Sequence record: MZ234013.1
DNA from: Escherichia phage vB_EcoM-101112UKE3-1
Length of the DNA: 64,000 bases
Direction: 5' to 3' (one strand)
Under the pieces are notes generated by a model. It made no database searches, was not told the DNA's origin, and saw only the letters and a program-made list of their open reading frames with translations. Below, piece by piece: positions 8,497 to 63,544 of the stretch. The stretch's first letter is position 1. Every line of letters starts with the position of its first letter. The translations under genes were made by a program, and so were the position numbers.

Positions 8497-8504
8497 TAAT
8501 AAAT

Positions 8505-8535: not shown

Positions 8536-9009
8536 ATGTTATTGACTGGCAAATTATACAAAGAAGAAAAACAAAAATTTTATAATGCACAAAACGGTAA
8601 ATGCTTAATTTGCCAACGAGAACTAAATCCTGATGTTCAAGCTAATCATCTTGATCATGACCATGAATTAAATGGACCAAAAGCAGGAAAGGTACGTGGA
8701 TTGCTTTGTAATCTATGCAATGCCGCAGAAGGTCAAATGAAGCATAAATTTAATCGTTCTGGCTTAAAGGGACAAGGTGTTGATTATCTTGAATGGTTAG
8801 AAAATTTACTTACTTATTTAAAATCCGATTACACCCAAAATAATATTCACCCTAACTTTGTTGGAGATAAATCAAAGGAATTTTCTCGTTTAGGAAAAGA
8901 GGAAATGATGGCCGAGATGCTTCAAAGAGGATTTGAATATAATGAATCTGACACTAAAACACAATTAATAGCTTCATTTAAGAAGCAGCTTAGAAAGAGT
9001 TTAAAATGA
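8536..9009 (+). CDS. 49: endonuclease VII (Holliday junction resolvase)
   Basis: 157 aa; Cys-rich zinc site (CLICQ...CNLC); size and sequence match recalled T4 gp49. Confidence 0.9.
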   Translation: MLLTGKLYKEEKQKFYNAQNGKCLICQRELNPDVQANHLDHDHELNGPKAGKVRGLLCNLCNAAEGQMKHKFNRSGLKGQGVDYLEWLENLLTYLKSDYTQNNIHPNFVGDKSKEFSRLGKEEMMAEMLQRGFEYNESDTKTQLIASFKKQLRKSLK

Positions 9010-31763: not shown

Positions 31764-33191
31764 GTGGTAGAAATTATTCTTTCTCATCTCATATTTGATC
31801 AAGCTTATTTTTCAAAAGTTTGGCCATATATGGATTCAGAATATTTTGAAAGTGGTCCAGCTAAAAATACATTCAAATTAATTAAATCTCATGTTAATGA
31901 GTATCATAGCGTTCCATCTATTAATGCGTTAAATGTTGCATTAGAAAATAGTTCATTTACTGAAACAGAATATTCTGGTGTAAAAACACTTATTTCAAAA
32001 CTGGCTGATTCTCCAGAAGACCACAGCTGGTTAGTAAAAGAAACAGAAAAATATGTTCAGCAAAGGGCGATGTTTAATGCTACGTCTAAAATAATTGAAA
32101 TTCAAACTAATGCTGAGCTTCCTCCAGAAAAACGAAATAAGAAAATGCCGGATGTTGGTGCTATTCCTGACATCATGCGTCAAGCATTATCAATTTCATT
32201 TGATAGCTACGTTGGTCATGATTGGATGGATGACTACGAAGCACGCTGGCTATCTTATATGAATAAAGCTCGTAAGGTTCCATTTAGACTCAAAATTCTA
32301 AATAAAATTACTAAAGGCGGAGCTGAAACAGGAACACTGAACGTTTTAATGGCTGGCGTTAACGTTGGTAAATCATTAGGACTTTGTTCATTAGCAGCAG
32401 ATTATTTGCAGCTTGGTCATAACGTTCTTTATATCTCCATGGAAATGGCAGAAGAAGTCTGTGCTAAACGTATTGATGCTAACATGCTCGATGTTTCTCT
32501 TGATGACATTGATGATGGACATATTTCTTATGCCGAGTATAAAGGAAAAATGGAAAAATGGCGTGAGAAATCTACTCTCGGTCGTTTAATCGTTAAGCAA
32601 TATCCTACTGGTGGAGCAGACGCTAATACATTTCGATCACTTTTAAATGAATTAAAGCTCAAGAAGAATTTTGTTCCAACAATCATTATTGTCGACTATC
32701 TAGGTATTTGTAAATCTTGTCGCATTAGAGTTTATTCAGAAAATAGTTACACAACTGTTAAAGCCATTGCAGAGGAATTACGTGCTCTGGCTGTTGAAAC
32801 CGAAACTGTTCTTTGGACTGCAGCACAGGTTGGTAAACAAGCTTGGGATTCTTCTGATGTTAACATGAGTGATATCGCAGAATCTGCCGGTCTTCCAGCA
32901 ACAGCTGATTTTATGCTTGCGGTCATTGAAACCGAGGAGCTAGCAGCTGCTGAACAACAACTCATTAAGCAAATCAAATCACGATATGGTGATAAGAATA
33001 AGTGGAATAAGTTTTTGATGGGTGTTCAAAAAGGAAATCAGAAATGGGTAGAAATTGAACAAGATTCTACTCCAACTGAAGTGAGTGAGGTAGCAGGTTC
33101 ACAACAGATACAAGCTGAGCAGAATCGCTATCAAAGAAACGAATCGACTCGAGCTCAGTTAGATGCTTTGGCAAATGAATTAAAATTTTAG
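31764..33191 (+). CDS. 41: replicative DNA helicase gp41 (DnaB family)
   Basis: 475 aa, GTG start after AAGGAG; Walker A GVNVGKS. Confidence 0.95.
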   Translation: MVEIILSHLIFDQAYFSKVWPYMDSEYFESGPAKNTFKLIKSHVNEYHSVPSINALNVALENSSFTETEYSGVKTLISKLADSPEDHSWLVKETEKYVQQRAMFNATSKIIEIQTNAELPPEKRNKKMPDVGAIPDIMRQALSISFDSYVGHDWMDDYEARWLSYMNKARKVPFRLKILNKITKGGAETGTLNVLMAGVNVGKSLGLCSLAADYLQLGHNVLYISMEMAEEVCAKRIDANMLDVSLDDIDDGHISYAEYKGKMEKWREKSTLGRLIVKQYPTGGADANTFRSLLNELKLKKNFVPTIIIVDYLGICKSCRIRVYSENSYTTVKAIAEELRALAVETETVLWTAAQVGKQAWDSSDVNMSDIAESAGLPATADFMLAVIETEELAAAEQQLIKQIKSRYGDKNKWNKFLMGVQKGNQKWVEIEQDSTPTEVSEVAGSQQIQAEQNRYQRNESTRAQLDALANELKF

Positions 33192-33751: not shown

Positions 33752-34045
33752 ATGAAAAAATTTATCTTTGCTACAATTTTTGCTTTAGCTTCTTGTGCTG
33801 CTCAGCCTGCTATGGCAGGTTATGATAAAGATTTATGTGAATGGTCTATGACTGCAGATCAGACTGAAGTTGAAACTCAAATTGAAGCGGATATTATGAA
33901 TATCGTTGAGCGTGATCGTCCTGAAATGAAAGCTGAAGTACAAAAACAGCTTAAATCAGGTGGTGTGATGCAGTATAACTATGTTTTGTATTGCGATAAA
34001 AACTTTAATAACAAAAATATCGTAACCGAAATCACAGGTGAATAA
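33752..34045 (+). CDS. sp: Spackle (periplasmic superinfection exclusion protein)
   Basis: 97 aa with cleavable signal peptide MKKFIFATIFALASCAAQPAMA; position upstream of 61. Confidence 0.8.
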   Translation: MKKFIFATIFALASCAAQPAMAGYDKDLCEWSMTADQTEVETQIEADIMNIVERDRPEMKAEVQKQLKSGGVMQYNYVLYCDKNFNNKNIVTEITGE

Positions 34046-34854: not shown

Positions 34855-35883
34855 ATGTCATCAATAGCTTGGATTGATAATGAGTTTGCATATCGTGCAT
34901 TAGCTCATTTACCTAAATTCACACAAGTAAATAATAGTTCAACTTTTAAATTACGGTTTAGATGCCCAGTTTGTGGAGATTCAAAAACCGACCAAAATAA
35001 AGCGCGTGGATGGTATTATGGTGATAATAATGAAGGAAATATTCATTGTTATAACTGTAACTATCATGCGCCAATCGGAATATATTTAAAGGAGTTTGAA
35101 CCTGATTTATATCGTGAGTATATCTTTGAAATAAGAAAAGAAAAAGGTAAAAGTCGTCCAGTAGAAAAACCTAAAGAACTTCCTAAACATCCTGAGAAGA
35201 AAATAATTAAATCTCTTCCGTCATGTGTTAGATTAGATAAACTGGCGGAAGACCATCCAATTATAAAATATGTAAAAGCTCGTTGTATTCCAAAGGATAA
35301 ATGGAAATATCTTTGGTTTACAACCGAATGGCCTAAATTAGTTAATAGCATAGCACCGGGAACATACAAAAAGGAAATTTCTGAGCCTCGTCTTGTTATT
35401 CCAATTTATAATGCTAATGGAAAAGCTGAGTCTTTTCAAGGACGTGCATTAAAGAAAGATGCTCCTCAAAAATATATCACCATCAAAGCTTATCCTGAGG
35501 CAACAAAAATATATGGAGTCGAACGAGTTAAAGATGGTGATGTATATGTTCTAGAAGGACCTATAGATTCACTTTTTATTGAAAATGGTATAGCTATTAC
35601 GGGTGGTCAATTAGACCTAGAAGTTGTTCCATTTAAAGATAGACGAGTGTGGGTTTTAGATAATGAGCCTCGTCACCCTGACACTATCAAGCGAATGACT
35701 AAATTAGTTGATGCAGGAGAAAGGGTTATGTTTTGGGATAAATCTCCCTGGAAATCAAAAGATGTTAATGATATGATTAGAAAGGAAGGTGCAACCCCTG
35801 AACAAATTATGGAATATATGAAAAATAATATTGCCCAGGGGTTAATGGCTAAAATGCGGTTATCTAAATATGCCAAGATTTAA
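34855..35883 (+). CDS. 61: DNA primase gp61
   Basis: 342 aa; zinc ribbon CPVCGDS...CYNC followed by TOPRIM-like region. Confidence 0.95.
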   Translation: MSSIAWIDNEFAYRALAHLPKFTQVNNSSTFKLRFRCPVCGDSKTDQNKARGWYYGDNNEGNIHCYNCNYHAPIGIYLKEFEPDLYREYIFEIRKEKGKSRPVEKPKELPKHPEKKIIKSLPSCVRLDKLAEDHPIIKYVKARCIPKDKWKYLWFTTEWPKLVNSIAPGTYKKEISEPRLVIPIYNANGKAESFQGRALKKDAPQKYITIKAYPEATKIYGVERVKDGDVYVLEGPIDSLFIENGIAITGGQLDLEVVPFKDRRVWVLDNEPRHPDTIKRMTKLVDAGERVMFWDKSPWKSKDVNDMIRKEGATPEQIMEYMKNNIAQGLMAKMRLSKYAKI

Positions 35884-36080
35884 ATTAACCCAACTAAAGC
35901 AAATGCTAGATCTACGAATGTATCAAGAGTAACTACTGGAATATTAACACCATGCGCAATTGCAATTGGTGATAAAATAAAGTTCCAGAGTAAAATTCCT
36001 ACCATAGCAGAAATAGTAAAAGCTATACGTTTTTTATTACCTTTTATGGCATTAACAAGTGCCATTAATTTTTGTGCCAT
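35880..36080 (-). CDS. small hydrophobic protein (66 aa), convergent with gene 61
   Basis: Minus-strand ORF with strong SD (AAGGAGGA 5 nt before ATG 36080); two predicted TM segments. Confidence 0.4.
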   Translation of the reverse strand: MAQKLMALVNAIKGNKKRIAFTISAMVGILLWNFILSPIAIAHGVNIPVVTLDTFVDLAFALVGLI

Positions 36081-36124
36081 ATGTCCTCCTTTAAATTAAT
36101 ATTTATCACAAATTTCATAAATTT

Positions 36125-36154
36125 GTTTACTTTCTCAGCTTGTTATGGTATTAT
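36125..36154 (+). promoter_or_regulatory. T4 early-type promoter
   Basis: GTTTAC 36125-36130, TATTAT 36149-36154; drives ORF 36180 and dam. Confidence 0.6.
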
Positions 36155-36179
36155 AAAATAAATTGCTGAGGATGATATA

Positions 36180-37519
<1,340 letters not shown>

Positions 37520-37579
37520 TTGCTTACATACTCAAATGATATAATTATTTAACTTATTGATGAATTGAAAGGAAAAATA

Positions 37580-38098
37580 ATGGCTTACTTTAACGAATGT
37601 AGTCAACTGATCGAAGGCGCTGATAAAGCTCAAAATGAATATTGGGATATTCTCGGTGATGAAAAAGACCCGCTGCAGGTAATGCTTGACATGCAGAAAT
37701 CTCTGCAGATTCGTTTAGCTAAAGATAAACCTGAATATAACCGTCATCCTGATGATTTGGCTACTGCAGGTGAAGTTGTTGATTGGCTGCGTAATCAGAA
37801 AGATTATATTGATGATGAATTCCGCGAACTTCTGACTTCTCTTGGTGGTATGAGCAATGGTGAAAAAGATGCATCTGCTGTATGGAAGCCTTGGAAAGCT
37901 CAACATGGTGAACGACGTGAAACTCTGATTACTGATTTGTCTCCACAAGACCAGTTGGAAATTAAATTCGAAATGATTGATATTCTTCATTTCGTTCTGA
38001 ACATGTTCCAAGGCCTCGGTCTTACGGCTGAAGAAATCTTTAAACTTTATTATCTGAAAAATGCTGAAAATTTCGCTCGTCAAGACCGAGGTTATTAA
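37580..38098 (+). CDS. 56: dCTP/dCDP pyrophosphatase gp56
   Basis: 172 aa from ATG 37580 (AAAGGA upstream); position after dam. Confidence 0.85.
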   Translation: MAYFNECSQLIEGADKAQNEYWDILGDEKDPLQVMLDMQKSLQIRLAKDKPEYNRHPDDLATAGEVVDWLRNQKDYIDDEFRELLTSLGGMSNGEKDASAVWKPWKAQHGERRETLITDLSPQDQLEIKFEMIDILHFVLNMFQGLGLTAEEIFKLYYLKNAENFARQDRGY

Positions 38099-38166: not shown

Positions 38167-38412
38167 ATGGCTAGTACTCGCGGTTATGTTAATATCAAAA
38201 CATTTGAGCAGAAATTAGATGGAAATAAGAAAATTGAAGGAAAGGAAATTTCAGTAGCTTTCCCTCTTTATTCTGACGTTCACAAAATTTCTGGTGCTCA
38301 TTACCAGACGTTCCCTTCAGAAAAAGCAGCATATACTACTGTATATGAAGAAAATCAGCGTACTGAATGGATTGCTGCAAACGAAGATTTGTGGAAAGTA
38401 ACTGGTGGTTAA
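38167..38412 (+). CDS. soc: small outer capsid protein Soc
   Basis: 81 aa; N-terminus MASTRGYVNIKTFEQ matches recalled T4 Soc. Confidence 0.9.
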   Translation: MASTRGYVNIKTFEQKLDGNKKIEGKEISVAFPLYSDVHKISGAHYQTFPSEKAAYTTVYEENQRTEWIAANEDLWKVTGG

Positions 38413-48429: not shown

Positions 48430-48801
48430 ATGTTTAAAATCGGTAAGAAATATCGCATTCGCGAAGGTGAAGAAAAGAAATATCTATTTTCTGCTATTTA
48501 TAGGAATGGTTCTATTAATGCTGTAATATCTACAAGCGAATTTATCGTTGAAGATATGAAAGGTAATAACGTTACAATGATTAGTACAGCATCTGGAAAT
48601 GACGGAAAAATTCTTCACAGTTTTCAGAGTAATGTTCTAATATATGATGAAGAATTTGACTTCTTCGAAGAAGTTCCCGAAGATTTTGATTTTGAATGCG
48701 CTATTACTATGAAGTCTGGTGACCCTCTTTCTTTTACAGTTAAAGATGAAAGAAGTCGCTTGAGAGTTATTAGTCTTCTTCAAGTCATTAAATTTAAGTG
48801 A
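48430..48801 (+). CDS. hypothetical protein (123 aa)
   Basis: ORF track. Confidence 0.4.
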   Translation: MFKIGKKYRIREGEEKKYLFSAIYRNGSINAVISTSEFIVEDMKGNNVTMISTASGNDGKILHSFQSNVLIYDEEFDFFEEVPEDFDFECAITMKSGDPLSFTVKDERSRLRVISLLQVIKFK

Positions 48802-62077: not shown

Positions 62078-62734
62078 TTATTTAGCCCTTCCTAATATTC
62101 TGGCCGCCTGAGAACATATTGATTCAAGGCGGTCATTACTTATATGATCATTTCTATACCAGTACATGGTTATTGTTCCAGCATAGATATTATCCAAATT
62201 GAAATATGGACAACTGTACATGTAATTTATTTCGGGAGTAGGCTTTTTGGTTGGTAAAAAAGCAAATTTTGAGTCGGAATAATAATGACGTCCATTTAAA
62301 TGAACTGTATATTCATCCATAGTTTTATCAACAGGATATCCTCCAAGTGATTTTTCACTTATTGTTGAAGGTAATTTTCCTTCATATGCTATAATATCAA
62401 CAAAGTAGTTTAAGTTTTTAGGGCGGAAAGAATACACCGCACTAAAGTCTGCCTCAGATGATATATGAACTATCTGGAGTTGTTCCAGGGCGACAGATTC
62501 AAAGCGTGCATTTCTTTCCTTTTCAATAATTTCACTGTATGTTTCATACTTTGATTGCTTATAGTACTCAAAGAAACTATCTCCCCTATACCAAACAATC
62601 GCCATTATAAACAAAAGAATTACGACAGCCACTCGGGAAGCAAGAACCTTCCCGGTAGCGTTATCTTTGAACAAGCGATCTAGAACACCAAATAGAATAT
62701 CAGAGGGCGAAAATGATATTCTAGGTGCTGCCAT
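62078..62734 (-). CDS. t: holin T
   Basis: 218 aa on minus strand; strong SD AAGGAGG; single N-proximal TM segment; stop abuts asiA stop. Confidence 0.9.
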   Translation of the reverse strand: MAAPRISFSPSDILFGVLDRLFKDNATGKVLASRVAVVILLFIMAIVWYRGDSFFEYYKQSKYETYSEIIEKERNARFESVALEQLQIVHISSEADFSAVYSFRPKNLNYFVDIIAYEGKLPSTISEKSLGGYPVDKTMDEYTVHLNGRHYYSDSKFAFLPTKKPTPEINYMYSCPYFNLDNIYAGTITMYWYRNDHISNDRLESICSQAARILGRAK

Positions 62735-62764: not shown

Positions 62765-63544
62765 TTATACTCTTGGACCGTATATTGCTCCAACATTTTG
62801 CCATGTTGGAGCGGACCCTATGACAGCATAACCAGCAGCTCCGCCGTTATATTCTGCACCGTTACCATGAGTATTACATCTTCCTCCAGCAGCACCAACG
62901 TTACCGCCCGCACCGCCTGTATATGCACTAAGAGACCCATTACCGACAGATCCTGCACCCGGAGCGTAAATGGTGCCAGCGGTTGCGCCTGTATTCATAC
63001 CAATAGATCCGCCAGGTGCACCAAACGGACGCCCACCGCCGCCGCCAAATACTAGTCGACCCCTGTTACCGCCGCCACCGCCGCCACCGCCGCCTGCAAT
63101 AGCTCCACCATTATTAATTCTTAGTCTCCCACCAATATCGTTTTGAATACAATGACCTCCAGCTGAGCCAGGACTATCCATACCGCCATTACCGCCACGT
63201 CCATACATCGTTACGCCGTGTATATTCAGCTGAACATATTCATTCGGTGTATCTCCATACATGAAGAATAAAGGAACATCTCTAGAATATGATACTAAAT
63301 CACCTGTAATATTAAACACTATAGGTGCATTACCTGCCTCAAAACATCTATCTCGGAACCATTGACCATTGAAGTTATGGTCTGCTCCAAGCGTGTGAAT
63401 AATTTCTCGTGAGCGACCTGCAAATTGACTCATCCAGCAAGGAACACCCAATCTTAATTGACCAGCCGCTTGACTCATCCAGCGCTGACCCGTTTCATTT
63501 ACGGATGAACTTCCAATCCAACCGGGAACACCAACTACTGCCAT
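62765..63544 (-). CDS. 38: long tail fiber adhesin gp38 (T2-type)
   Basis: 259 aa from ATG (complement 63542-63544; track ORF starts at TTG 63556); glycine-rich motifs including a 9-Gly run. Confidence 0.85.

Follow-up and report, generated by a model that had tools for sequence, protein, structure and literature searches.

A conserved small membrane-protein gene convergent with gene 61 in T4-like phages carries late-type expression signals

The window analysed here, a 64-kb stretch of Escherichia phage vB_EcoM-101112UKE3-1, is part of a Tequatrovirus (T4-like) genome and contains a minus-strand mini-gene for a small membrane protein at the 3′ end of gene 61. We consider it almost certain that this is a genuine gene, conserved across T4-like phages. 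The best explanation is that it already belonged to the Tevenvirinae backbone, tail-to-tail with gene 61, before the genera split and has remained there. The variable nuclease-like/dam insert beside it in this phage is independent of it.

Conservation of the mini-gene at the 3′ end of gene 61

Over the 601 bases that surround the mini-gene, the sequence is 100% identical to that of fFiEco06, JB75, YUEEL01 and other Tequatrovirus genomes. An initial annotation of this DNA had described a minus-strand ORF of 66 codons between gene 61 and a nuclease-like ORF, in a region with almost every gene on the + strand. The ORF is present (Table 1), and all of its neighbours are indeed on the + strand, which is therefore the early/middle sense here. 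The minus strand of the window is the late-gene sense, as exemplified by holin t and gp38. The stop codon had been said to abut that of gene 61; the two are adjacent, but they overlap in a shared palindrome rather than merely abutting, and the same 4-nt tail-to-tail overlap with gene 61 was found in ST0, VR25, Marfa, Moon, S16 and RB69.

Table 1 Features of the mini-gene locus and of other genes in the window
Feature	Position	Strand	Remarks
Gene 41, helicase	31764-33191	+	Local gene order
dmd, 61.4, sp, 61.2, 61.1	Between gene 41 and gene 61	+	
sp	33752-34045	+	2 kb from the mini-gene
Gene 61, primase	34855-35883	+	
Overlapping convergent stops, gene 61 (+) and mini-gene (-)	35880-35883		Palindrome TTAA, 4 nt
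Mini-gene, small membrane protein of 66 aa	35880-36080	-	ATG, 66 codons, TAA
Terminator-like hairpin ATGGCATTAACAAGTGCCAT and T-run	36046-36075	+	Within codons 6-12 of the mini-gene
Shine-Dalgarno (SD) AAGGAGGA	36084-36091	-	3 nt (CAT) before the ATG
T4 late-promoter-like box GATAAATA	36100-36107	-	Consensus TATAAATA, -13 to -6
Sigma-70-like promoter TTTACT-17-TATTAT with TG	36126-36154	+	Serves the 186-aa ORF and dam
186-aa ORF (nuclease-like)	36180-36740	+	
dam	36740-37519	+	
Gene 56	37565-38098	+	
soc	38167-38412	+	
Holin t	62078-62734	-	Pfam PF11031, E 6e-118
gp38	62765-63544	-	Confirmed by Pfam

With tblastn, we found the mini-gene encoded in 692 phage records. Its orthologues are 61–69 aa long, share 20–55% identity and occur in eight genera, always convergent with gene 61. 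Besides Tequatrovirus, these genera are Mosigvirus, Gaprivervirus, Dhakavirus, Marfavirus, Kanagawavirus, Moonvirus and Gelderlandvirus, and the 4-nt stop overlap is usual among them; the convergent arrangement was found in T4, T2, T6, RB55, RB69, ST0, VR25, JS98, Marfa, Q7622, Moon, PEi26 and S16. In an alignment of 11 sequences, residues W32, N33, P38, G44, P48 and G64 were invariant. W32, N33 and P38 remained so across 27 sequences, with G44 and P48 nearly invariant across the family. The protein matches phrog_2024 (E 1.6e-31), its residues 3–66 aligning to positions 2–65 of the 65-position profile. By size, position and the W-N...P...G...P motif it is a member of this family together with RB69ORF029w and ‘dam.1’ of the T4-species phage RB55, and we found no difference of substance between it and the family, a set of conserved hypothetical proteins of T4-like phages without an assigned function. 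Close relatives annotate the mini-gene as a hypothetical, putative membrane or transmembrane protein. The family is small: it forms 114 clusters at 90% identity, and a set of 1.84 billion proteins contains 22 representatives of it at 50% identity; a single-protein scan of IMG/VR yielded 5 close loci.

The pattern of substitution is that of a coding sequence. Among 14 distinct Tequatrovirus alleles, pN/pS was 0.205 in the mini-gene frame, the lowest of the six frames, and of 31 variable sites 16 fell at third and 4 at second codon positions. The initial annotation had stressed that random ORFs of 66 codons are uncommon, which is weak as evidence from length: on the minus strand of the window, 31 ATG ORFs reach 66 codons or more, and most of these run antisense to genes. 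Shuffles of the 301-nt gap do bear the statement out locally, with an ORF of at least 60 aa in only 1.6% of them. That the ORF is beyond chance rests on conservation, not on length. The same annotation had allowed that the ORF might be spurious, an idea that is effectively ruled out by the pN/pS ratio, the orthologues in eight genera and the phrog_2024 match; what it had proposed as a small membrane-protein gene running against the early genes has turned out to be conserved and genuine.

T4 itself retains the ORF intact (NC_000866, 17738–17938) with three conservative substitutions, yet it is unannotated there: the T4 RefSeq record has 309 bp between dam and gene 61 without any feature. Our literature searches found no paper on this mini-gene. 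As a feature it is already known, being annotated in hundreds of genomes and catalogued as phrog_2024. We found no earlier description of the argument for a late promoter, of the gene's independence from dam, of the remote signal to holin families or of the T4 annotation gap.

Several loci depart from the common form. T6 (AP018814; locus L008, 1492–1692) has ATT where the mini-gene has ATG, and its annotated start corresponds to Met6; T6 is either a natural start-codon variant or a user of a rare initiator. The T6 label ‘putative head morphogenesis protein’ was rejected as a clue, the similarity-transferred names of that record being unreliable (gene 56, for example, is called ‘ferredoxin’). 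In Gaprivervirus (VR25; locus L006, 2495–2901) there are two tandem paralogues of 65 and 66 aa that are ~25% identical; Dhakavirus, Marfavirus and Kanagawavirus have only a gene of the copy 2 type. TH40 (L007) has lost copy 2, and in phage RZ a homing endonuclease is annotated at that spot.

Expression signals and neighbouring elements

The signals upstream of the start codon suggest that the mini-gene is probably transcribed late. The box GATAAATA matches the late-promoter consensus at 7 of 8 positions, its sole difference lying at the variable position −13 (G, not T or A). The predicted transcription start is at ~36094, with a leader of ~14 nt. Late promoters of T4 consist of just the 8-bp box, and of 50 listed T4 late sites 32 are perfect and 9 have A at −13, most of the others showing different single deviations (PMC2988020); in related phages, T at −13 is poorly conserved (PMC1524935). 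The G in the mini-gene box is an uncommon variant. Its layout, GATAAATA-N19-ATG, is nearly identical to that of holin t in the window, which reads AATAAATA TCCTTAAAAGGAGGGTCT ATG, or AATAAATA-N18-ATG.

The box recurs across the family. In 13 of 16 loci (8 genera), NATAAATA precedes the ATG by 22–30 nt, in lineages with differing flanks, including every Tequatrovirus, Mosigvirus, Gaprivervirus (copy 1) and Dhakavirus locus as well as PEi26. Marfa and Q7622 have a perfect TATAAATA box upstream of the mini-gene, and Moon and S16 have ATTAAATA at the promoter position. The second Gaprivervirus paralogue lacks a late-promoter box and is presumably co-transcribed. The HMM of Nolan et al. called no late promoter before RB69ORF029w, although AATAAATA is present there. 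A GGAGG-type SD occupies the same place in all 16 loci compared, so that both the ORF and its SD are conserved among relatives. For the phage studied here, the initial annotation had reported a strong SD 5 nt before the ATG; the SD is there, but the spacing is shorter (Table 1), and T4 has 2 more nt at this point.

The core motif of the box is rare in the window. ATAAATA is ~8-fold depleted, occurring 3 times per strand in 64 kb against 24–29 expected (second-order Markov expectation: mean 24.6, minimum 12). The sites are at 8498(+), 38129(+), 59988(+), 62760(-), 48502(-) and, at the mini-gene, 36107(-). Three of the five others precede soc, holin t and gene 49 (8536–9009), which are known late-transcribed genes. 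Of the remaining two, site 59988 abuts the ATG of a 109-aa ORF, and site 48502 lies antisense within the + strand ORF 48430–48801, has no ORF downstream and may drive a late antisense transcript.

On the dam side, the mini-gene's late box lies back-to-back with the sigma-70-like promoter of the 186-aa ORF within a 99-nt intergenic region, and JB75 and fPS-65 annotate the latter as an early promoter. The 186-aa ORF immediately precedes dam, overlapping the start of that gene. It is a member of phrog_8706 (unknown function) and has weak Pfam matches to the DpnII (E 0.0045) and BanI restriction endonucleases; its counterpart in phage Shinka is labelled ‘putative restriction endonuclease’. The pairing of a GATC-type nuclease-like gene with dam in T-even phages may merit separate study.

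The initial annotation had tied the mini-gene to this nuclease/dam pair. The gene, however, stays beside the 3′ end of gene 61 where one or both of these are missing. In T4, dam is present and the 186-aa ORF is deleted, with a C-terminal remnant left upstream of dam, and the mini-gene is kept; T6, teqskov and Pu-Krd-SF5 have neither dam nor the 186-aa ORF and retain it. Mosigvirus, Gaprivervirus, Dhakavirus, Marfavirus, Kanagawavirus, Moonvirus and Gelderlandvirus all have the mini-gene without dam, and in these other genera gene 56 or unrelated small ORFs lie on its dam side. Through all of these flank rearrangements the ORF, the SD and ~30 nt upstream were kept. Since its position is unchanged with or without dam and the nuclease-like ORF, a reading of the mini-gene as a partner in that module fails.

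A terminator-like hairpin lies on the early strand within the mini-gene (Table 1): an 8-bp stem at 36046–36065 followed by a T-run, of which 1 was found against 0.3 expected. fPS-65 annotates it as a terminator, and it may end gene 61 transcripts. Its location inside the coding sequence of the opposite strand amounts to dual use of the same bases. On the minus strand we found no terminator after the mini-gene, so late transcription would continue into gene 61 in the antisense direction.

Two readings would deny the mini-gene an independent role as a protein-coding gene of the phage backbone. In one, the ORF is incidental, and the stretch matters as the 3′ UTR or terminator of gene 61, as a promoter spacer, or as the source of a late antisense RNA that damps primase mRNA. 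The early-strand hairpin and the missing minus-strand terminator speak for it, as does the transcription of both strands at some sites known for T4 (PMC2988020). The hairpin, however, is limited to Tequatrovirus loci and absent from the other genera, and therefore cannot account for conservation of the ORF across genera; an explanation by the terminator alone was rejected on this ground. Frame, length and specific residues persist down to 20–30% identity across genera, substitutions are biased to synonymous sites in the mini-gene frame, the SD is conserved, and an Rfam search of 35700–36300 gave no match, all of which makes this reading very improbable. The other, raised by the initial annotation, sees in the product a peptide, toxin-like or for exclusion, that cooperates with the neighbouring nuclease-like/dam pair or guards it. 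The genes are physically adjacent in vB_EcoM-101112UKE3-1, their promoters stand back-to-back, and the product is small and hydrophobic, as are many type I toxins. The distribution of the gene contradicts the idea, as the mini-gene stays in place in phages that lack dam, the 186-aa ORF or both. Toxin and defence models of Pfam, NCBIfam and PADLOC gave no match, no antisense RNA or Rfam element is present, and the expression signals are late-type rather than early or constitutive, a poor fit for an early-acting exclusion factor. The T4 superinfection exclusion proteins Imm and Sp are likewise small envelope proteins of the same phage, with sp nearby, but they are encoded by early + strand genes and share no sequence similarity with the mini-gene product. 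A toxin or exclusion partner of dam is thus poorly supported, and we regard it as the least probable of the readings considered here.

Membrane topology and remote similarity to holin families

For the independently conserved gene, a single-pass N-in topology of the product appears the likelier arrangement, on the basis of hydropathy, charge, an AlphaFold2 model and a published TMHMM prediction. Of the two transmembrane (TM) segments proposed in the initial annotation, one is firm, at residues ~19–42 (KD 1.8–2.0); the C-terminal stretch is too short and too polar across the family to be a conserved second one. In the window's subfamily the last 18 residues are hydrophobic (mean KD 2.05), yet D53 and D57 are among them. 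Among 36 family members the tail after P48 is 14–27 residues long (median 18) and, outside two subfamilies, of only mild hydrophobicity; a second full TM is therefore not characteristic of the family. TMHMM likewise gave one TM in RB69ORF029w (PMC1524935, Additional File 2). The N-terminal 18 residues include five Lys/Arg and no acidic residue, and the mean net charge of the 36 members is +2.6 before and −1.0 after the TM; by the positive-inside rule, this bias indicates the N-in orientation. The AlphaFold2 model, built with the family alignment, has helices at residues 2–12, 16–42 and 52–63 (mean pLDDT 77). A Foldseek search of the model against BFVD returned family members only, and a profile search of the PDB chance TM matches only. 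The name ‘Holin’ on one BFVD match, OE5505, was set aside as an unreviewed database label.

The protein and sets of 11 to 36 family members were scanned against Pfam, NCBIfam and PADLOC, with nothing above threshold. The window protein matched nothing in Pfam, with no match to PF11351 (GTA_holin_3TM) even at E 10. Five family members do match PF11351 at E 0.03–0.1, always at positions 66–117 of its 123, the best of them scoring 13.6–15.3 bits, below the gathering threshold of 24.8 bits. Only the C-terminal part of this three-TM profile aligns, and the mini-gene protein has one firm TM and a short C-terminal helix. Three distant members match phrog_3427 ‘holin’ (E 5e-4 to 0.15), and tblastn with one distant member picked up the ‘GTA-like holin’ of Pseudanabaena phage Pan1. 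When the family profile was aligned to that of the Pan1 family with hhalign, the probability was 92% and the score 37, compared with 13 for reversed controls and 10.6 ± 2.6 (maximum 23) for 100 column shuffles; the match is therefore order-dependent and not merely compositional. The ‘holin’ label of the Pan1 family rests on the same weak PF11351 match, which 19 of its 23 members show (best E 0.0017, all below threshold). Pan1-family contexts are small ORFs upstream of terminase, with no lysin, and a profile search of genome contigs with this family gave 2 uninformative MAG loci.

PF11351 includes the experimentally supported ICP1 holin TeaA (PMC7182436). We dropped TeaA as an anchor for the holin lead, ICP1 ORF136–139 having no PF11351 match by hmmscan. 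Like the GTA/TeaA-type holins (PF11351, phrog_3427, Pan1), the mini-gene product would be a small inner-membrane protein of a phage, and the similarity recurs at the C-terminal part of their profiles. It differs in being half their length with one firm TM instead of three, and in its gene not lying beside a lysin in T4-like phages, which already have holin T. With T it would share the N-in single-pass topology, but it has no match to PF11031 (Phage_holin_T), which the real t of the phage matches. It shows no sequence similarity to T or to the antiholins RI and RIII, and it lacks a large periplasmic domain.

In T4-like genomes the mini-gene stands well away from t, e, rI, rIII and the spanin genes. 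The contexts of distant members are mixed. In prophage-like metagenomic contigs these members are found most constantly beside an Endonuclease VII gene, a J-like tail-tip gene and tail-type ORFs, not lysis genes, and are followed by proteins with weak PHROG matches to ‘minor tail protein’ and ‘tail assembly chaperone’. In contigs L031 and L032, the distant member heads a same-strand cluster with a lysozyme gene at its end; the distance to a lysozyme gene is 1–5 genes in L036 and L040. Five distant members (L034, L039, L041, L042 and L043) lie immediately 3′ of the Endonuclease VII gene, often with a 4–8-nt overlap, those of L031 and L032 are divergent from it, and the members lie after the J-like tail-tip gene.

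Possible roles at the inner membrane

We tentatively propose, with somewhat less than even confidence in the account as a whole, that the mini-gene encodes a late-made, N-in small inner-membrane protein with an end-of-cycle role in the envelope as a holin-derived accessory. The gene would be silent while the surrounding early/middle genes are read on the + strand. Late in infection, RNA polymerase with gp55 would start at GATAAATA and produce a short-leader mRNA with a strong SD. The protein would then insert into the inner membrane, its Lys/Arg-rich N-terminus remaining cytoplasmic and its one TM holding the conserved W-N-x4-P core. A conserved periplasmic turn, G-x3-P-x-V-x-[LIM]-[DE], would follow, and then a short C-terminal helix, both acidic and hydrophobic, lying within or upon the outer leaflet. 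As an accessory derived from a holin family it might influence membrane permeabilization or the timing of lysis, which we suggest with low confidence. The primary holin would be T and not the mini-gene protein. T is indispensable for lysis in T4, whose t mutants do not lyse, and the mini-gene protein therefore cannot substitute for it.

Taken alone, a role related to lysis is rather doubtful. Every holin-family match is below the curated threshold, and the protein lacks the charged cytoplasmic C-tail usual in holins. We know of no genetic link between the mini-gene and lysis, and to our knowledge the genetics of T4 lysis has never pointed to its locus. This last point also favours a late small membrane protein with a role outside lysis, be it a virion-assembly helper for head or tail-fibre steps at the inner membrane, a late function in envelope protection or exclusion, or a dispensable niche function. 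All the evidence that the gene is real and expressed late applies equally to such a protein, and the distant members in prophage-like contigs stand at the end of tail-gene blocks. Set against this, no morphogenesis or exclusion family proved similar, such remote similarity as recurs is to holin families alone, and the T4 exclusion proteins Imm and Sp are made early, not late. We regard a non-lysis membrane role as roughly as likely as that of a holin-derived accessory, and neither as probable in itself. More specifically, and with correspondingly less confidence, T-even phages including T4 might possess an overlooked late miniature holin-family protein, a truncated relative of the GTA/TeaA type, that tunes T-holin triggering, lysis inhibition or membrane energization; we consider this unlikely.

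T4 is the reference for its subfamily, and because of the 309-bp gap in its RefSeq record, omics data mapped to the annotation cannot see this gene. Recording a conserved, probably late membrane-protein gene there corrects the map and does away with an attractive but mistaken connection to dam and the nuclease-like ORF. If the mini-gene proves dispensable and without phenotype, it is one more small accessory ORF. It could also reveal whether T-even lysis has an unrecognized accessory, and a miniature holin-family protein, if that is what it encodes, would be a new component of the best-studied phage lysis system.
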